Below are positions 30,504 through 41,241 of a stretch of DNA of 64,000 nucleotides, piece after piece. This DNA is from Lichenihabitans sp. (GTDB lineage Bacteria; Pseudomonadota; Alphaproteobacteria; Rhizobiales; Beijerinckiaceae): contig CBDCBM010000004.1 in assembly GCA_965214365.1 (NCBI GenBank), positions 1,926,881 to 1,990,880 on the forward strand. The letters are read 5' to 3'. Position 1 is the stretch's first letter, and every line of letters starts with the position of its first letter. Under the pieces are notes generated by a model. The model had not been told where the DNA came from, made no database searches, and saw only the letters and a program-made list of their open reading frames with translations. A program made the position numbers and the translations under genes.

Positions 30504-30637
30504 AGCACGATGGGCCGCTACCGAAATGATCGAGACTTCAAATCCCTTAATGATGGAACGGGTGGTTTGAACGAGGGCGATTTGAAGTGTCCTCGGACCC
30601 AGTTCAGCTGTTTCAACCTTTAGATCGTGATGCTTAA
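30501..30637. repeat. Palindromic intergenic element (RIME/MITE-like) between convergent genes
   Basis: Inner inverted repeat acttcaaatc (30535-30544) / gatttgaagt (30579-30588). Outer imperfect inverted repeat taaagcacgat ... atcgtgatgctta. Confidence 0.5.
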
Positions 30638-31236
30638 ACCTCGCCGACCTTGCAGCCGAATTCTGCGGCGGCGTCCGATAGCCAGTGTCCGAATCCACCC
30701 GCCATAGAGCGGGGCACCGCGACTTCGTAAGTCGGACGGTCGTCAAGCTGCCACAGCAGGGCTGAAATCCCCACCGCGACCGTCATGGCCACATCCCCAG
30801 CGCGGAAGGCGCGTGGATGGAGATCGATCTCGAACCCCTTGGCGAGCGCGTCTCGCACACGCGGGCCGCTGATAGTCAGGGCGGCGCGTGAATGACTCTG
30901 GTCGATGAGGGTGGCGTGAGAGGTCCATCCCGACAGGTCGGCTTCCAACTGCGCGAAGGACCCGGAGCGGCGCACCAGCCACTGGCCCGGCCCCGCCCAG
31001 AGTAGGGTAAGGCCCTGCGCATTGACCCATCGCGGCTTCAACGGAAGCTCGAGCCCCCAGGCTGTCACGGCCCGCGTTAAACCGTCGCCAGAACCTCGCC
31101 GCAGGCTCATCAAAGCCATGGCGCAGGGGGTCGATTCCACGATCGTCACCCCCGGCGCGCCGGATTGATTGCCAAGCCGGCCGCGCCGCCAAACGCCCGC
31201 CCAGGGAGAGATTTCGGCAAAAGCTGTGTCAGCCAC
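30634..31236 (-). CDS. soxG: Heterotetrameric sarcosine oxidase-type gamma subunit
   Basis: LLWAGPGQWL, IDQSHSRAALTISGPRVRDALAKGFEIDLHPRAF and YEVAVPRSMAG. Probable GTG start at 31236, overlapping the soxA stop. Confidence 0.88.
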   Translation of the reverse strand: MADTAFAEISPWAGVWRRGRLGNQSGAPGVTIVESTPCAMALMSLRRGSGDGLTRAVTAWGLELPLKPRWVNAQGLTLLWAGPGQWLVRRSGSFAQLEADLSGWTSHATLIDQSHSRAALTISGPRVRDALAKGFEIDLHPRAFRAGDVAMTVAVGISALLWQLDDRPTYEVAVPRSMAGGFGHWLSDAAAEFGCKVGEV

Positions 31237-34200
31237 GCAGGCGCGCTCCTTCAGGATCGTAGAAGACTGGCGCACAGACCTGCACAAGCGTGTCACGGCC
31301 CCTCACGGGGTCATAGGCGCGCACCTGTTCCCCGTGGCGACGCGGCCCGCGCCGCAACAGACCGAGGGCGATCACCGAGCCCAGGGTCGGCGACCAGGCC
31401 GAGGAGGTGATGAAGCCTTCGTCGTTGCGGGCCTTGTTCTCGGCTCCGGGCCGCAACAGATGGGCGCCGGCGCCGATCGGATCCTGGGGGTTGACTGGTT
31501 TGAAGCCAACGAGGACCGGCCGCTCGGGATCGACCAGCGCCGGCCGCCCCGCGAGCGTCGCGCCGATAAAATCCTTCTTCATGGACATCATGCGCCCAAG
31601 TCCGAGGTCCATCGCGGTGGTCTGCCCGTTCAACTCGCCGCCGGCCGCATGCCCCTTTTCGATGCGCAAGACGTTGAGAGCCTCGATCCCGTAAGGGACG
31701 ATGCCATGCGGCGTTCCGGCCACCATCAAGGCGCGCAACAGGCTATCGCCGGCATTGGCCGGCACAGCGAGTTCATAGGCGAGTTCGCCCGAGAAGGAGA
31801 TGCGGAACAGCCGGGCCGGCGTCCCATCCCGCAACGCAGCCGACGCCACCGCCATGAACGGGAAAGCCGCGTTGGACAGATCGAACTCCTGCCCGAGAAC
31901 CGCCGATAGGACCTCGCGCGAGCGCGGGCCGGCAATGGCGAATTGCGCCCATTGTTCCGTCACCGACGCCATGGAAACGTCGAGGTCCGGCCAGAGCACC
32001 TGAGCCGCGAATTCCATATGCGCCATCACCTTCACGGCATTGGCTGTGGTGGTCGAGAGGACGTACCGCTCCGCGCCGAGCCGGGCGACAGTACCGTCGT
32101 CCATGACGAAGCCATCCTCGCGCAGCATGACGCCATAGCGGGCCCGGCCGACGGGAAGCGTCGACATCATATTGGTGTAGAGCCGGTCGAGCAGGATGGC
32201 GGAATCCTTGCCGACGACCTCGATCTTGCCGAGAGTCGAGACGTCACAGAGCCCCACCCGTTCGCGCACCGCCTTCACCTCGCGATCGCAAGCGTCACGC
32301 CAGCCCTTGTCACCCGGCTTCGGAAAATATTGCGCGCGCAGCCAGAGGCCGGTCTCCATGAAGACCGCGCCTTCGTGGACCGCCCAGGCATGGCCCGCCG
32401 TCAGCCGCGTCGGCTTGAGATGCTTGCCCTTATGGTGGCCCGCGAGCGTCCCGATGGCGACCGGCGTATAGGGTGGCCGGAAGCGCGTCGTGCCCGTGGC
32501 CGCGACCGTCTGGCAGGTGAGTTCCGCCATCAAGGCGAGGCCGTTGACATTGGAGGTCTTGCCCTGATCCGTCGCCATGCCGAGGGTCGTATAGCGCTTG
32601 AGATGTTCGACGGACCGGAACCCTTCGGCTTTCGCGATCTCGACGTCCGAGGCCGACACGTCGTTCTGGAAATCGACGAAAGCCTTGCCCTTGAGGTTCT
32701 TGACCCGCCAGAGCGGCGTCACGGCCGTGCTCTCGGCATCGGCGGAGGGAATGGTTACCGATTTCGGGTGGAAGCCGCACGCCGAGGCGGCCTCGCAGCC
32801 CGCCCGAATGCCGTCCGCCAGACAAGCCGCAAGCGCGAAGTCACCCCTCGCGGCTCCGACGACCTTCATGCCGGGCGGCAAGGTTCCTGGGACGAAAGCG
32901 GCCAGCGAGGGCGCCCATTCCGGACGGCCGCCGAGATGCGACGTGAGATGGACGGTCGGCTGCCAGCCGCCGGAAACGGCAAGCAGATCGCACGGCAAAG
33001 ACAGCACCTGACCACGGGCGTCGCGGATCTCGACGCCCTGCAGTTGCCGCGTGCCGAGCGCGCGCGAGACGACGCCCTCGACCAGCCGGGCGCCTGTTTC
33101 GCGACTCAGCACTTCGAGGCTAACGAGCGCGTCGGGGCGCGGGTCGACCACGGCCGCGAGCTCGATGCCGGCTTGAGTGAGTTCGCGTGCCGTGCGCAGC
33201 GCATCGTCGTTGTTGCCGAAGATCACGGCACGACTGCCGGGTTTGACGGCGAAACGATGCAGATAGGCCCGGACCGCGCCCGCCAGCATCACGCCCGGCC
33301 GATCGTTATCGGCGAAGACGACGGGCCGCTCGATGGCACCACTCGCCAGGATCGCCTGTTTGGCTACGATGCGCCAAAGCCGCTGGCGCGGCTCATGAGC
33401 CGGCGGCGTGGCGACATGGTCGTTGACGCGCTCCACCGCCGCATAGGTGCCCCCGTCATAGACGCCGACGACCGTCGTGCGCCGTAGGACCCTCACCTCC
33501 GGCAGGCTCGACAGTTCGGCCTCGACCGAGGCGACGAACGCAGGCCCCGATTGCCCGCCGATCTCCCGCTGCTCGTTGAGCAACCGACCGCCGAGCGCGA
33601 AATCCTCCTGCAGCAGCATGACGCGGGCGCCCGAGCGCCCGGCCGCAAGGGCCGCCACCAGGCCGGCGGGGCCGGCGCCGATGATCAGGACGTCGCAGAA
33701 GGCGGTGCACTTTTCGTAACGATCGGGATCCGGGGTCTCCGCAGCACGGCCGAGCCCGGCCGCCTTGCGGATCATGGGCTCGTAGACCTTCTCCCAGAAG
33801 GCGGCCGGCCACATGAACGTCTTGTAGTAGAAACCGGCGCCCAGGATCGGCGCGGCCAGCGAATTGATGGAAAGAAGGTCGAAACGCAGGTTGGGCCAAC
33901 GGTTTTGGCTCTGCGCCACGAGGCCATCGTAGACCTCGGTGGTGGTGGCTCGGGTGTTGGGCTCGCGCCGTGCGCCGTCCCTCAACTCGACGAGCGCGTT
34001 CGGCTCCTCGGGTCCCGCGCTCAGGATGCCGCGCGGCCGATGATACTTGAACGAGCGCCCGACGAGGCGCACGCCATTGGCCAGGAGCGCCGAGGCCAGC
34101 GTATCGCCCGCGAAGCCTTGATATTGCTTGCCATCGAAGGAAAACGACAATGGCCGGCGCTCGATCTGGCCGCCGGCGATCAACCGAAAGGGCTGAACCC

Positions 34201-34297
34201 GAGAGGCGGCAGCCACGGGCGAATTGGGTGTGACCCGCGCGGCCCGACCTGGAGAACTTTCCCCGGGAACGGCTGCGGGACGGACTGCATCGCTCAT
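31229..34297 (-). CDS. soxA: Heterotetrameric sarcosine oxidase-type alpha subunit
   Basis: GDTLASALLANGVRLVGRSFKYHRPRG, IGAGPAGL, HLKRYTTLGMATDQGK and a C-terminal GcvT-like folate domain (DVSTLGKIE, RISFSGELAYEL). Start moved to MSDAVR (34297). Confidence 0.93.
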   Translation of the reverse strand: MSDAVRPAAVPGESSPGRAARVTPNSPVAAASRVQPFRLIAGGQIERRPLSFSFDGKQYQGFAGDTLASALLANGVRLVGRSFKYHRPRGILSAGPEEPNALVELRDGARREPNTRATTTEVYDGLVAQSQNRWPNLRFDLLSINSLAAPILGAGFYYKTFMWPAAFWEKVYEPMIRKAAGLGRAAETPDPDRYEKCTAFCDVLIIGAGPAGLVAALAAGRSGARVMLLQEDFALGGRLLNEQREIGGQSGPAFVASVEAELSSLPEVRVLRRTTVVGVYDGGTYAAVERVNDHVATPPAHEPRQRLWRIVAKQAILASGAIERPVVFADNDRPGVMLAGAVRAYLHRFAVKPGSRAVIFGNNDDALRTARELTQAGIELAAVVDPRPDALVSLEVLSRETGARLVEGVVSRALGTRQLQGVEIRDARGQVLSLPCDLLAVSGGWQPTVHLTSHLGGRPEWAPSLAAFVPGTLPPGMKVVGAARGDFALAACLADGIRAGCEAASACGFHPKSVTIPSADAESTAVTPLWRVKNLKGKAFVDFQNDVSASDVEIAKAEGFRSVEHLKRYTTLGMATDQGKTSNVNGLALMAELTCQTVAATGTTRFRPPYTPVAIGTLAGHHKGKHLKPTRLTAGHAWAVHEGAVFMETGLWLRAQYFPKPGDKGWRDACDREVKAVRERVGLCDVSTLGKIEVVGKDSAILLDRLYTNMMSTLPVGRARYGVMLREDGFVMDDGTVARLGAERYVLSTTTANAVKVMAHMEFAAQVLWPDLDVSMASVTEQWAQFAIAGPRSREVLSAVLGQEFDLSNAAFPFMAVASAALRDGTPARLFRISFSGELAYELAVPANAGDSLLRALMVAGTPHGIVPYGIEALNVLRIEKGHAAGGELNGQTTAMDLGLGRMMSMKKDFIGATLAGRPALVDPERPVLVGFKPVNPQDPIGAGAHLLRPGAENKARNDEGFITSSAWSPTLGSVIALGLLRRGPRRHGEQVRAYDPVRGRDTLVQVCAPVFYDPEGARLRG

Positions 34298-34581
34298 CGG
34301 GTGAACTCCCCAGCCTGGCCCTTCACCCCACGCGCCGCCGAGACCGAGGCAATTTCGTGGGTCGAGATGTTGCGCTCGACTGTCAGCCAGGCCCGACATC
34401 CCGCGCTGTGCTGCCACCATTCACGCAGCATGCCAGGAGGATTGCGGCGAATATAAACATACTCGAAAAAAGCCGCTTCCCCGGCGGTCGCACCGGTCTC
34501 TGGCCGAACCGGCGCCGCATCGCCCAGATACGTGAATTCGGCGTTGGACCGTTCGCCGCAGAAGGGGCAGGCAATGCGCAT
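34294..34581 (-). CDS. soxD: Sarcosine oxidase-type delta subunit
   Basis: MRIACPFCGERSNAEFTYLGDA...YIRRNPPG...EWWQHSAGCRAWL, with the Zn-binding Cys/His pattern. Its stop overlaps the soxA start. Confidence 0.9.
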   Translation of the reverse strand: MRIACPFCGERSNAEFTYLGDAAPVRPETGATAGEAAFFEYVYIRRNPPGMLREWWQHSAGCRAWLTVERNISTHEIASVSAARGVKGQAGEFTR

Positions 34582-34625
34582 GGGTGTCGGGTTCCAAAAA
34601 GCGGCAGCATTCAAGTCTTGATGGT

Positions 34626-35912
34626 TCAATGCAGGTTGGGCTGTGCCCCGGACCCCGCCTCGTCCAACAAATGGCCCGTGGCGAAACGATCGAGCCGGTA
34701 GGGTACGTTCAGGACATGCGGCTCGTCGTTGGCGATCGTATGAGCGAAGCAGAAGCCGGACGCCGGGGTTGCCTTGAAGCCGCCGTAGCACCAGCCGGCA
34801 TTAAGGTAGAGACCCTCGACGGAGGTCTTGTCGATGATCGGCGATCCGTCCATCGACATATCCATGATGCCGCCCCAGGAGCGCAGCACGCGCAGCCGCC
34901 CGAGGCGCGGCATCACGGAGACCGCTTCCTCCATCACCTCCTCGACCATGGGCAGGTTGCCGCGCTGCGCATAGGAATTGTAGCCGTCGATCGAGCCGCC
35001 GAAGACGAGGCCGCCCTTGTCCGATTGGCTGATGTAAAAATGCCCCCCGCCAAAAGTCACGACATTGGGCACCAGCGGTTTGATGCCTTCCGACACGAAG
35101 GCCTGGAGCACGTGGCTCTCGATCGGCAGCCGCAAGCCGGCCATGGCCGCGACGCGGGAGGAATTGCCCGCGCAGGCAAGGCCGATCTTCTTGGCGCCGA
35201 TGAAGCCGCGCGACGTCTCGACCCCCGTCACCCGCCCGCCCGCCATGCGGATGCCGGTCACCTCGCAATTCTGCAGGATATCGACGCCGCGTTTGTCGGC
35301 AGCCCGGGCGTAGCCCCAGGCAACGGCGTCATGGCGCACAGTGCCGCCGCGCTTCTGCAACAGGCCACCGGTGATCGGAAAACGGGCATTGTCGAAATCA
35401 AGGTCGGGGACCAGCGCCCTCACCCCCTCGCGGTCGAGAAGTTCGGCGCCGACGCCGTTGAGCCGCATGGCGTTGCCGCGCCGCGCGAAGGCGTCGCGTT
35501 GCGAATCAGAATGGCACAGGTTCAGAACCCCGCGCTGGCTCACCATGGCGTTGTAATTGATGTCCTGTTCTAGCCCTTCCCAAAGCTGAAGCGACTTTTC
35601 GTAGAAGGGGATATTGCCGTGCTCGCGATAGTTGGAGCGGATAATGGTGGTGTTGCGACCGACGTTACCCGAGCCGATCCAGCCCTTCTCCACCACGGCG
35701 ACATTGGCAAGGCCGTGGTTCTTGGCGAGATAATAGGCGGTGGCAAGTCCATGGCCGCCGCCGCCGACGATCACAGCGTCATAGGCGGGCTTGGGTTCGG
35801 GCTCGCGCCACACCGGGGTCCAACCGGTCTGTCCCTTGAACGCCTGCGACAGAATGGAAAAGATCGAATAATGCACGGCGATCCGGCTCCGTAGATGCAT
35901 CCCTCGGGGCAA
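34626..35912 (-). CDS. soxB: Sarcosine oxidase-type beta subunit (FAD)
   Basis: IVGGGGHGLATAYYLA, GSGNVGRNTTIIRSNY and NAGWCYGGFKATPASG. The real start is probably GTG near 35876. Confidence 0.93.
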   Translation of the reverse strand: MPRGMHLRSRIAVHYSIFSILSQAFKGQTGWTPVWREPEPKPAYDAVIVGGGGHGLATAYYLAKNHGLANVAVVEKGWIGSGNVGRNTTIIRSNYREHGNIPFYEKSLQLWEGLEQDINYNAMVSQRGVLNLCHSDSQRDAFARRGNAMRLNGVGAELLDREGVRALVPDLDFDNARFPITGGLLQKRGGTVRHDAVAWGYARAADKRGVDILQNCEVTGIRMAGGRVTGVETSRGFIGAKKIGLACAGNSSRVAAMAGLRLPIESHVLQAFVSEGIKPLVPNVVTFGGGHFYISQSDKGGLVFGGSIDGYNSYAQRGNLPMVEEVMEEAVSVMPRLGRLRVLRSWGGIMDMSMDGSPIIDKTSVEGLYLNAGWCYGGFKATPASGFCFAHTIANDEPHVLNVPYRLDRFATGHLLDEAGSGAQPNLH

Positions 35913-37188: not shown

Positions 37189-37665
37189 CTATCCCGGGCG
37201 CCGCTCCCAAAAGACGCTGCCATCGAATTCGAACACCACATCGCCGTTTTGATTGGTGCCGGTGTTGTGATGAAAGATCAGGCCCCAACCTGGCGTCGAG
37301 GTTCCGCGCTTCCCGACGAGTTCGGAAACATAGCGGATCGTATCGCCGACATGGACGGGCTTTTTCCATTTGAGCTGACGAAAGCCCGGCGATGGGCCGG
37401 GCTTTGACGGGGTCGAGCCGCTCGCCAGCAGCGAAGCCATCGTGGCTTGGCGATGAGCGACGTAGAGCTTCATCCAGATCGCCGCCGTATGCCAACCTGA
37501 AGCTGCCAGCCGTCCGAAATGGCTAAGGGCCGCCGCCGCGTCGTCGAGATGGAACGGTTGCGGATCGTAGCGCTGGGCAAAGCCGACGATCTCGTCCGCC
37601 GTGAACGTGTGGGTTCCGAGATCAAGCCGGGTCCCGATCACAAGGTCCTCGAAAAAGTCGCTCAA
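37189..37665 (-). CDS. MaoC family dehydratase
   Basis: FAQRYDPQPFHLD hydratase motif, ASGWHTAA, and PGFRQLKWKKPV. Confidence 0.88.
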   Translation of the reverse strand: MSDFFEDLVIGTRLDLGTHTFTADEIVGFAQRYDPQPFHLDDAAAALSHFGRLAASGWHTAAIWMKLYVAHRQATMASLLASGSTPSKPGPSPGFRQLKWKKPVHVGDTIRYVSELVGKRGTSTPGWGLIFHHNTGTNQNGDVVFEFDGSVFWERRPG

Positions 37666-38117
37666 GCTCGCTCCTCCGGCGTCCGGCGCTGAACCAGAAT
37701 GACGTTCCCCTGGCGCATGACGCAGGCGCCATGCTGATTCGTTATCGTGAACTCAACCCCTACAAGGCCCATCTCCGGCCGCGAGCGCGACGTCCGAAGG
37801 CTGGAGATCTGGCCATCAAGATGCAGATGGTCGCCGACAAGAACCGGCTGAGGCCATTCCACGATCTCGATGCCCGGGGCACCAAGACATGCGGTCCGGT
37901 GAAGGAAGACCTCGCAGATCATCCGCATGCCAAGGGCGCTCACATGCCATTCCGACAAGCCCCGGCCTTCGCGGGGTGGATCGGTCCAGGCTGACGCGTC
38001 GATCGCGGCATCAGCGAAAGCCGACTCGAACCAAGCCGCATCGTCCTGCGATACCAGCGTCTCGCCGTGCGGCAGAACCTGACCTTCCATCAAATCTTCG
38101 AAGAACCACTGCTGCAT
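37662..38117 (-). CDS. MaoC-like hot-dog fold protein with a degenerate active site
   Basis: FFEDL, LGAPGIEIVEWPQPVLVGDHL and SRSRPEMGLV. It overlaps the next gene by 4 bp and lacks the DPQPFH motif. Confidence 0.75.
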   Translation of the reverse strand: MQQWFFEDLMEGQVLPHGETLVSQDDAAWFESAFADAAIDASAWTDPPREGRGLSEWHVSALGMRMICEVFLHRTACLGAPGIEIVEWPQPVLVGDHLHLDGQISSLRTSRSRPEMGLVGVEFTITNQHGACVMRQGNVILVQRRTPEERA

Positions 38118-38454
38118 CACATCGATCTGTGGGCGAACGACCATGCAAGGCAAGGTCCAGAGATGGTAACTTGGGGAGCTTACGGCCATGATCAAGCATC
38201 AGCCGCGAGGCGGGCGCGCAACTAGAAGCGCGAACGGAGAGGCGTGCAAAACACCGAGGGGCTGTCTAGGGGCAGGTCCATCCCCGCCGCCTGCAAACCC
38301 CGAACGAGATCGCAAGCGCTGCTCTGTTCCTGGCGTCGGACGAGAGCGGTTTTGTGACTTGATCCCCCCGCAAGTCGCCCGAAAGGGTTGGGATAAGCAA
38401 TACAACGGGACGATAGGCGCGGGCAGGGGTACTTTCGTTTCGGCTGCCTTATAA

Positions 38455-38490
38455 AGAAACGCCGCTAACGATAGATCGTTAACGGCGCCT
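38455..38490 (-). terminator. Intrinsic (Rho-independent) terminator of the micropeptide gene
   Basis: The minus strand reads cgccgttaacgat-ct-atcgttagcggcg followed by tttcttt: a 13-bp stem with one U-G pair, a few nt after the TAA stop. Confidence 0.75.
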
Positions 38491-38713: not shown

Positions 38714-39748
38714 TCAGCGAGAACCGCGCCGAGGCGCTTTCGGCTGCTGCTGAGTAATGCAGTGGATATTGCCTCCGCCATCCGCGATCCCGTGGCCGGG
38801 CACGATCACGATCTCGCGCTCCGGAAAAGCCATGCCGAGGACGCGAGCCGCCTCAGCGTCGGTGACCGCGTCAAAGCCCGGCATGATGATGGCTCCATTG
38901 GCGAGGTAGAAATTGACATAGGACAGCGCCACGGCCTGACCGTTGTCGTCATAATTGCGGGGCGGCATCGGCAGATCGAGGATCGTGAGGCGCCGTCCAC
39001 GGGCATCGATGGCCTTCTCGAGCACCGCCCTCGCCTCGGCCAGGATGGCGAAGTCGGGATCGGAGCGATCCGAGGTCGCCGGCAGCAGCACATGCGCGGG
39101 TTTATAAAAGCAGCATAGGTTGTCGACGTGACCTCGGGTCTCGTCGTTGGTGAGCCCGCGCGGCAGCCAGACGACACTCTCCACGCCGAGAGTCGCCATG
39201 AGATTCGCCTCGATATCCGCCTTGTCGAGATGCGGATTGCGCTTGGGGTCGAGCAGGCATTCCTCGGTGGTGAGCAGCGTCGCCTCGCCATCGACATGGA
39301 TGGAGCCGCCCTCCAGGATTTGGGGACCGACGATCCGCCGCGCCCCGGCGAGGTCGAGGATGCGGCGCGCCAGACGGGCGTCGCGATCGAACCCGTCGTA
39401 GCAAAGCCCCCAGGCGTTGAAGCCCCAATCGACCCCGGCGAGATCGCCGGCCTCGTCGACCACGAAGGTCGGGCCGATGTCGCGGGTCCAGCTATCGTCG
39501 AGCTCGGCCGGCACGAGGTCGGCGGCCCCCGCCGTCAAGCGGCCGGCCTCGTCGAGATCCTCCAGGCGGACCATCAGCGTCACCGGCTCATGCGCGGCAA
39601 TGGCCTTGACGACAGCGGCGAAAGCCTCGCGCGCCGGCCCGAGGCCATGACGCCAAAGGTCCGCCCGGCAGGGCCATGCCATCCAGCAGCGCTCGTGCGG
39701 CTCCCACTCGGCGGGCATGCGGCGACGTTGCGGCGCCCCGCGGGTCAT
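38714..39748 (-). CDS. aguA: Agmatine deiminase family protein
   Basis: RMPAEWEPHERCWMAWP, DDSWTRDIGP, FNAWG, LEGGSIHVDG, GHVDN, SYVNFY and GGGNIHCITQQQP (catalytic Cys). Start moved to 39748. Confidence 0.92.
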   Translation of the reverse strand: MTRGAPQRRRMPAEWEPHERCWMAWPCRADLWRHGLGPAREAFAAVVKAIAAHEPVTLMVRLEDLDEAGRLTAGAADLVPAELDDSWTRDIGPTFVVDEAGDLAGVDWGFNAWGLCYDGFDRDARLARRILDLAGARRIVGPQILEGGSIHVDGEATLLTTEECLLDPKRNPHLDKADIEANLMATLGVESVVWLPRGLTNDETRGHVDNLCCFYKPAHVLLPATSDRSDPDFAILAEARAVLEKAIDARGRRLTILDLPMPPRNYDDNGQAVALSYVNFYLANGAIIMPGFDAVTDAEAARVLGMAFPEREIVIVPGHGIADGGGNIHCITQQQPKAPRRGSR

Positions 39749-40839
39749 AGTCCGGCGGCCTCCACCGCGAGGCTGATCGCGGCCTCCTGATGCGGCAGGA
39801 GCGCGTGACCCGGATAGGTCGAATAGATCGGCAGGAAGGGATCGTCGATCGGCGTCTTGAGGCCGCTCAGCTCCTCCATCACCGCAAGGCCGCAATAGGG
39901 GACATAACTCGCCGAATAGCCGCCCTCATGCGACATGGCGAGCCGGCCTCCGCACAGGTCGTCCGCCGCGCGCATGAGCAAGGCCGTCAGGCTCCGGAAG
40001 CTGCCCGAATGAAGCATCATGCGGCCGAGCGGGTCGGCGACCGAAGCGTCGAAGCCCGAACAGACGACGATGGCGTCCGGCTCGAAGCGCCGCAGCGCCG
40101 GCAGGACGATGCGCTCGAAGGCGCTGAGATAGGCGCCATGGCCGCAGCCCGCTGGCAGCGGCACGTTGATGTTCGTGCCCTCGCCGGGTCCCGCGCCACG
40201 CTCCGCCAGCGTCCCCGAACCCAGCGGAAACAGCCCGTCCTGGTGGAGCGAGATGGTCAGGACGTCGGGATCCGCATAGAAAGCGGATTGGGTGCCGTTC
40301 CCATGATGCACGTCCCAATCGACGATGGCGACGCGGCCGAGCGCATGGGTTTTGCGCGCCTTCAGAATCGCGATCGGCACGTTGCCGAAGAGGCAAAAGC
40401 CGAGGCCAAGGTCCCGCTCGGCGTGATGGCCCGGAGGCCGGACCAGAGCGTAGCCATTGGCGACCCGCCCGGTCAGAACGGCATCGAGCAGCGCATAGGT
40501 GCCCCCAACGGCCAGACGAGCGATCTCGAAGCTGCCTGGTCCGAAGGGTGTCAGGTGGCTCGCGTCGCCGCCCCGGTCTTTGCTGAGAGCCTTGATCCGG
40601 GCGATGTAGTCGCGGTCGTGAAAAAGCGCGAGGTCGTCCTCGTCGAGCGCAGCAGAGGGGCAAAAGGTCAGGCGGTCGATGAGGCCCGAGACTTCCAAAA
40701 GATTGCGGAAGCGTCGCTTGGTGGCGGCATTTTCCGCATGTTCGCCCGGTTCGATGGTCAGGCCCGCCGGGAAGATGCTCGCCGCGTTGCCGGTATCGTG
40801 CCACAGGTAAAGCTCATGGAAATTCCAGCCTGTCGACAT
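39745..40839 (-). CDS. Class II histone-deacetylase-like amidohydrolase (HDAH family)
   Basis: YLWHDTG, RPPGHHAE, GFCLFGN, DWDVHHGNGT, SGFDASVADPLG and HEGGYS. Its stop overlaps the aguA ATG (ATGA). Confidence 0.92.
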   Translation of the reverse strand: MSTGWNFHELYLWHDTGNAASIFPAGLTIEPGEHAENAATKRRFRNLLEVSGLIDRLTFCPSAALDEDDLALFHDRDYIARIKALSKDRGGDASHLTPFGPGSFEIARLAVGGTYALLDAVLTGRVANGYALVRPPGHHAERDLGLGFCLFGNVPIAILKARKTHALGRVAIVDWDVHHGNGTQSAFYADPDVLTISLHQDGLFPLGSGTLAERGAGPGEGTNINVPLPAGCGHGAYLSAFERIVLPALRRFEPDAIVVCSGFDASVADPLGRMMLHSGSFRSLTALLMRAADDLCGGRLAMSHEGGYSASYVPYCGLAVMEELSGLKTPIDDPFLPIYSTYPGHALLPHQEAAISLAVEAAGL

Positions 40840-41241
40840 CCGCTATCCTCTGGGTTCCGCCCCATGCGACAGACGCGGGGTGCGCCCTCGCGAGCGTGTC
40901 GCGGGAGGCTAGACAGGGCCGGGATTTTGGTCAAACCGGCCGCCCCCCAGCCCTCGACGACGCTCCAAACCCCTTCGCGGTCGTCGAGGATCTGCTGATT
41001 GATCCGCGCCATCGCGTCTCCAGGGGCGCTGGCGAAGGGGCATGGACCGGCTGGGACAGCAATGCCGGATTATGGGATGCAGGCGCCGGGTTCTTGAAAG
41101 CGGCCTCGGCAATCATGCGGTGCATCGGTTCTTCGAACGGCGGGGTTTTGCACGGCCCTCGATCGTGATGATGCGGGATCTTTCGACTTCGTAAAGACTC
41201 TCTCGTTTATGCCTGACGGCGGGAAGGCTGCGGAGACACCT

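Follow-up and report, generated by a model that had tools for sequence, protein, structure and literature searches.

The overlapping deacetylase and agmatine deiminase genes of the window (the whole 64,000-nucleotide stretch of Lichenihabitans sp. DNA analyzed here) form a genuine operon that joins two known enzyme families and is limited to one lineage. The upstream gene encodes a Zn-dependent HDAC-family deacetylase of the HDAH/cluster 1b type (364 aa; 39745-40839, reverse strand), and the downstream gene encodes an agmatine deiminase, AguA (344 aa; 38714-39748, reverse strand), the assignments coming from Pfam (PF00850 and PF04371, respectively) and PDB matches. We give an even chance to the reading that the pair survives from a fused unit for amine/polyamine catabolism, in which a small N-acetyl amine would be the substrate of the deacetylase, working alongside AguA or downstream of it. 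The initial annotation had proposed that an APAH-like deacetylase supplies AguA with agmatine released from N-acetylagmatine; its view of the pair as one unit in amine or polyamine use stands, but neither an APAH-like deacetylase nor a conserved coupling dedicated to this route is supported.

The gene pair and its surroundings

Both open reading frames lie on the reverse strand, and the ATGA at 39745-39748 combines the stop codon of the deacetylase gene (TGA) with the start codon of aguA (ATG), confirming the overlap first noted in the initial annotation. A GGAGG ribosome-binding site for aguA is located inside the 3′-end of the deacetylase gene (39760-39764, reverse strand), 12 nt upstream of the start ATG. 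We rejected a longer, TTG-started aguA frame (393 aa from 39895), which overlaps the deacetylase gene with an extension that matches nothing; the ATG at 39748 fits the homologues and has a ribosome-binding site. The overlap is ordinary, no more than chance for an operon: overlaps were found in 71 of 432 co-directional pairs (∼16%, using a rough ORF picker on 0.9 Mb of the source genome). It is also a derived state, since a TetR gene intervenes at the same junction in the four closest orthologous loci. We infer that the two genes are co-transcribed. Both are under purifying selection (dN/dS of ∼0.16 for the deacetylase and ∼0.21 for aguA, against three relatives). The closest named relatives are Lichenihabitans and Lichenifustis (78-80%).

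The statement that no amidase for N-carbamoylputrescine and no transporter is adjacent holds for AguB and for a Pot importer, but a divergent EamA transporter gene lies 0.7 kb upstream. Divergent from the pair there is also the remnant of a GNAT acetyltransferase gene (40959-41194, forward strand), recognized by homology to intact GNATs, which lacks its 5′ half and has a frameshift near 41033-41042. It is 65-68% identical to an intact GNAT divergent from aguA in a related genome (G014), and a homologue is likewise placed in G024. An intact GNAT homologue (55%) is found elsewhere in the source genome (G000 C3:1107170-1107700), where it overlaps the stop codon of a gene for a class III aminotransferase. 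No remnants of amidase or TetR genes were found beside the pair, and promoter, terminator and repeat scans of the locus gave nothing exceeding chance. The intergenic region downstream of aguA is low in GC (56%); a 13-bp inverted repeat with a 2-nt spacer (window 38460-38487), downstream of aguA and upstream of MaoC-like genes, is a possible operator. The MaoC-like dehydratase genes are two in tandem (37189-38195, reverse strand) with a 4-nt overlap, and in relatives no such genes were found beside the pair; further along, 30634-35912 (reverse strand) carries a beta, delta, alpha, gamma operon that looks sarcosine oxidase-like.

The deacetylase belongs to the HDAH/cluster 1b type

By its sequence the deacetylase is an HDAH/cluster 1b enzyme (287 bits to PF00850), with best PDB matches to PrpH (381 bits), KpHdaH (377 bits), and PA3774 (369 bits); together with DmhA and FB188 HDAH, these cluster 1b deacylases match it over nearly the full length at 320-381 bits. 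The APAHs of cluster 4 (PA0321, PA1409, and the M. ramosa enzyme) share its fold family and catalytic residues, and also occur in polyamine loci, but the best APAH structure (3men) scores just 122 bits, and in the tree the protein falls with the HDAHs, on a branch separate from the true APAHs, which form the outgroup. The APAH assignment was therefore rejected. The catalytic motifs are intact, as had been claimed for both enzymes: the protein contains R134-PPG-H138-H139, D174, N181, and E305-GG-Y308, and its predicted zinc ligands are D176, H178, and D264. The residues that classically mark a Zn-dependent deacylase (D176, H178, D264, H138, H139, and Y308) are invariant across 18 homologues. 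The N-terminal L1 loop, through which cluster 1b enzymes form tetramers, the RPPGHH and EGGY motifs, and the C-terminal helix region are further cluster 1b features; the enzyme keeps RPPGHH, as in the members that deacetylate lysine, whereas PrpH and DmhA, which act on small molecules, have RPAGHH.

Unlike the cluster 1b members tested to date, the deacetylase falls in a distinct alphaproteobacterial orthogroup, with an L1 loop shorter by three residues and tunnel segments (ASIF, SHLTP, and PIYSTY) that differ from those of both KpHdaH and PrpH. The polyamine/amide gene context of this orthogroup is likewise not described for the tested members (PMC11532494, PMC4784309). PA3774 was found to be inactive on acetylputrescine, acetylcadaverine, acetylspermidine, and acetylspermine (PMC4784309), and a cluster 4 member alone deacetylated acetylpolyamines among the enzymes tested in PMC11532494; both studies report cluster 1b enzymes as inactive on acetylputrescine and acetylcadaverine. 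A comparison of aguA-linked with unlinked deacetylase orthologues revealed no residues specific to the linked ones, whose tunnel has acquired no acidic residue either.

The source genome has one further, distant HDAC-family gene, and no APAH was found in it. APAH-like genes occur in nine genomes of the genus, seven of them without an HDAH orthologue; most belong to one clade, so that the pattern possibly reflects phylogeny only. In two other families, G027 and G039 (L149 and L150) carry a true APAH with aguB, amidases, and Pot genes, an arrangement of known type. A second cluster 1b-like deacetylase (56%) heads another Liv-type importer in G016 and G021 (L128:9310-10428 and L129:9702-10820), in G021 at 29 kb from the first. 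A frameshift interrupts the deacetylase gene in G022, G010, and G018 (L115, L116, and L117), likely a sequencing error because other genes are split in those assemblies too.

The second gene is a predicted agmatine deiminase

AguA scores 391 bits against PF04371 and 375.5 bits against TIGR03380, just under the equivalog cut-off of 381.8, and its best PDB matches are plant and Enterococcus agmatine deiminases (250-307 bits). The catalytic set is present (C330, H207, D209, and D90, including the guanidine-binding Asp). In the plant enzyme, the channel and the free-amine-binding site are formed by W91, W125, G361, D89, and D220 (PMC6447857); these correspond to W87, W113, G325, D85, and E203 of the window AguA, and are nearly invariant in 11 AguA orthologues. 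We take these residues to identify the second enzyme as an agmatine deiminase that requires a free amine, as first supposed; binding of an N-acetylated substrate would probably be weaker.

The initial annotation had also considered two-step de-modification of peptides, by the deacetylase and a peptidyl-arginine deiminase. AguA does share its propeller superfamily and Pfam family with the Porphyromonas enzyme PPAD (PMC4487231), and the Pfam name PAD_porph is the one point in favor of this reading. But none of the PPAD structures was matched even at E values of 10, against 250-307 bits for the agmatine deiminases, and the protein is a single cytoplasmic domain of 344 aa without secretion domains, whose closed site, with W87, W113, D85, E203, and G325 kept, is of the amine-binding AguA type instead of the PPAD type, in which an Arg pair binds carboxylate. 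Its neighbors in relatives are Pot importers. The PPAD assignment was rejected, and we consider peptide de-modification highly improbable.

The linkage is restricted to one clade of the genus

We surveyed 31 genomes of the genus, some of them incomplete. A deacetylase orthologue is present in 15 of them and aguA in 12, always alongside the deacetylase (12 of the 15 genomes with the deacetylase vs. none of the 16 without it); three genomes have the deacetylase but no aguA. The amidase (16 of 31) and potD (14 of 31) show nearly the same pattern. On the rpoB tree the deacetylase and aguA have a patchy distribution, including several sister pairs in which one member has the genes and the other has not. 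The two genes are closely linked in five (loosely six) of the 12 genomes that hold both. In G012, G016, G021, and G022 the gene order is amidase, deacetylase, TetR, aguA; the direct overlap is seen in the source genome alone, which has no TetR orthologue. In G010 the two genes are separated by 3.9 kb that include an amine oxidase gene; in G018 they are 1.6 Mb apart, and in five further genomes they are on different contigs with other neighbors. The directly linked deacetylases, including that of the source genome, form one clade on a very short branch (UFBoot 96), nested among orthologues of the cassette type described below.

Outside the genus, linkage was absent from 80 loci of the deacetylase, 80 of aguA, and eight orthologue look-ups. 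A sample of 400 genomes of the class gave none in 16 loci, with both genes present but apart in 10 of 17 genomes. One of the top aguA loci (G091) has a deacetylase gene 2 kb away, but it is divergent and encodes a protein only 40% identical. Co-occurrence gave Fisher p-values of 3e-6 in the genus and 4e-4 in the class (10/17 vs. 71/383), both overstated, since related genomes are not independent data points and the values are uncorrected for genome size. A conserved, dedicated two-step route, as had been envisaged, is thus not supported, since TetR intervenes in relatives and the linkage lies within one clade of the genus.

Two amine-related modules in relatives

The deacetylase has a wider context in relatives, in which genes for an amidase, a Liv-type ABC importer, a GMC oxidoreductase, and sometimes a PuuC-like aldehyde dehydrogenase precede the deacetylase gene. 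This amidase-Liv ABC-GMC-deacetylase cassette was found in six genomes of the genus and in Mesorhizobium, Aureimonas, Allorhizobium, Paroceanicella, and Methylocella; its importer and oxidases suggest that the deacetylase serves in small-molecule use. G007, G010, G014, and four distant loci have a copper amine oxidase gene close to that of the deacetylase. The Liv binding protein is close to PDB 3h5l (462 bits) and the amidase is of the PRK06169 type; PDB and NCBIfam searches with the GMC, the amidase, the binding protein, and the GNATs named no substrate. The cassette is conserved across Rhizobiales and Rhodobacterales (L231, L232, L235, L239, L240, L117, L121, L123, and L127), and is more widespread than the pairing with aguA.

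The aguA gene has its own context, consisting of potABCD, two to three GNAT genes, and a class III aminotransferase gene; the resemblance of these GNATs is to uncharacterised acetyltransferases and not to enzymes known to acetylate polyamines. The same TetR family member is found beside either module (Methylocella, G007, G018, and Aureimonas), and Aureimonas has independently united the deacetylase cassette with potABCD, the TetR gene, and the aminotransferase gene (73% identical), but with no aguA. In the aguA-linked clade, the orthologues of the Liv binding protein and the GMC have been lost, and the deacetylase is kept under selection.

In the source genome the remaining parts are dispersed. 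An AguB-like gene is located at G000 C1:609880 (385.7 bits, just under the equivalog cut-off of 410), so the missing aguB beside the pair leaves no gap in the pathway; the amidase is at C4:679 kb, the Pot importer at C1:99-105 kb, and the GNATs at C1:1063 kb. The aminotransferase, amine oxidase, GMC, and Liv importer have no orthologues, only paralogues of 37-46%. No SpeA was found, which favors the catabolism of imported agmatine, despite the presence of a fold-type I Orn/Lys/Arg decarboxylase. The set resembles the agmatine deiminase pathway, in which AguA works with AguB or a putrescine carbamoyltransferase, in its full AguA residue set and its AguB-like gene; it differs in that aguB is unlinked here and went undetected in 8 of the 12 genus genomes with aguA. 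Those without a close aguB are G002, G010, G014, G018, G022, G024, G043, and G044, all of which have the PRK06169-type amidase, a candidate non-homologous N-carbamoylputrescine hydrolase.

Proposed role of the pair and alternatives

We propose that two amine-catabolic modules were fused in a single clade of the genus, and that their parts later became scattered in the source genome. AguA would convert imported agmatine to N-carbamoylputrescine, and the unlinked AguB-like enzyme would convert this to putrescine. The deacetylase may be a zinc amidohydrolase whose substrate, a small N-acetylated amine, carries a neutral or acidic group at the opposite end; it would act alongside AguA or downstream of it, not before it. 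Our specific guess is the breakdown of an acetyl-protected diamine in a presumed catabolic direction: a GNAT would acetylate one end, the other end would be oxidized by the amine oxidase or the aminotransferase (or by the GMC, from an alcohol) and the aldehyde dehydrogenase, and the deacetylase would free an omega-amino acid, for example releasing GABA and acetate from 4-acetamidobutanoate. In yeasts, plants, and mammals, an acetyl-protected route leads from N-acetylputrescine through 4-acetamidobutanal and 4-acetamidobutanoate to GABA. Such a route needs a deacetylase together with a GNAT, an aldehyde dehydrogenase, and an amine oxidase, and all four occur around the orthologues, but the orthologous oxidases are missing from the source genome, and with the aminotransferase, amine oxidase, GMC, and Liv importer orthologues lost, orthologues alone do not complete the proposed route there. 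Our literature search found no bacterial paper on the acetyl-protected route or on an acetamidobutyrate deacetylase. Deacetylation of an N-acetyl monoamine, followed by oxidation, fits the cassette equally well.

Several alternatives were considered. The two genes may have no common function, being independent amine modules brought under one regulator by a single rearrangement, with the overlap a by-product of TetR loss. The single short-branched clade of linked deacetylases and its lack of specific residues fit such an accident, as do the 6 of 12 genomes that keep the genes apart and the absence of linkage in the 80 deacetylase, 80 aguA, eight look-up, and 16 class-wide loci; yet aguA accompanies the deacetylase across several sister pairs, selection has kept the deacetylase in the linked clade despite the loss of the Liv importer and GMC, and there is a second, looser association in G010 as well as the Pot link in Aureimonas, so we regard an accident as unlikely. 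The deacetylation of N-acetylagmatine ahead of AguA, as originally proposed, would explain the gene order and coupling. Since AguA keeps the free-amine-binding residues E203 (D220 in the plant enzyme) and D85 (D89), acetylated agmatine would need prior deacetylation; GNATs crowd around aguA, the source genome has no APAH, and the acidic entrances of cluster 1b enzymes like a positive charge near acetyl-lysine. This route is possible but not favored, because deacetylases of this type usually refuse charged polyamines: the clade's tested members do not act on acetylputrescine or acetylcadaverine, and the linked clade has gained no acidic tunnel residue. The orthologues, moreover, lie mostly away from aguA, three genus genomes lack aguA altogether, and among 22 papers listed on acetylagmatine, no title or abstract dealt with a bacterial deacetylase. 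We consider it distinctly improbable.

We think it equally improbable that the enzyme resembles KpHdaH or PA3774 in deacetylating acetyl-lysine of proteins or peptides and is co-expressed in order to control the pathway enzymes. RPPGHH and EGGY are indeed the motifs of robust lysine deacetylases, and PA3774 and KpHdaH are active on acetyl-Lys peptides in vitro (PMC4784309, PMC11532494), but the orthologues travel with a solute importer, an amidase, and oxidases, and the L1 loop restricts access. That the deacetylase or the linked amidase-signature enzyme stands in for AguB by hydrolyzing N-carbamoylputrescine is very unlikely: the eight aguA genomes without a close aguB (best match ≤139 bits vs. 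385-428) do all contain both the deacetylase and the amidase, but aguB is present in four of the five closely linked genomes, including the source genome, the cassette exists without aguA, and several of the surveyed genomes are incomplete; our literature search found no precedent for an amidase-signature carbamoylputrescine hydrolase. Against these alternatives, the remnant of a fused catabolic unit is the reading that we prefer.

As a local arrangement of two well-known families, the pair matters little unless a new substrate or a substitute for AguB emerges from it. It is an unlikely prospect that through this orthogroup cluster 1b acquires a natural small-molecule substrate within polyamine catabolism (of the 4-acetamidobutanoate type, or N-acetylagmatine), with an undescribed bacterial acetyl-cycle route and an amidase-signature enzyme replacing AguB where it is missing. 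The value of the pair is as a lead to the natural substrates sought for the HDAH/cluster 1b deacetylases (PMC4784309, PMC11532494), for which the locus and its relatives offer a small set of candidates as well as hosts that can be cultured.
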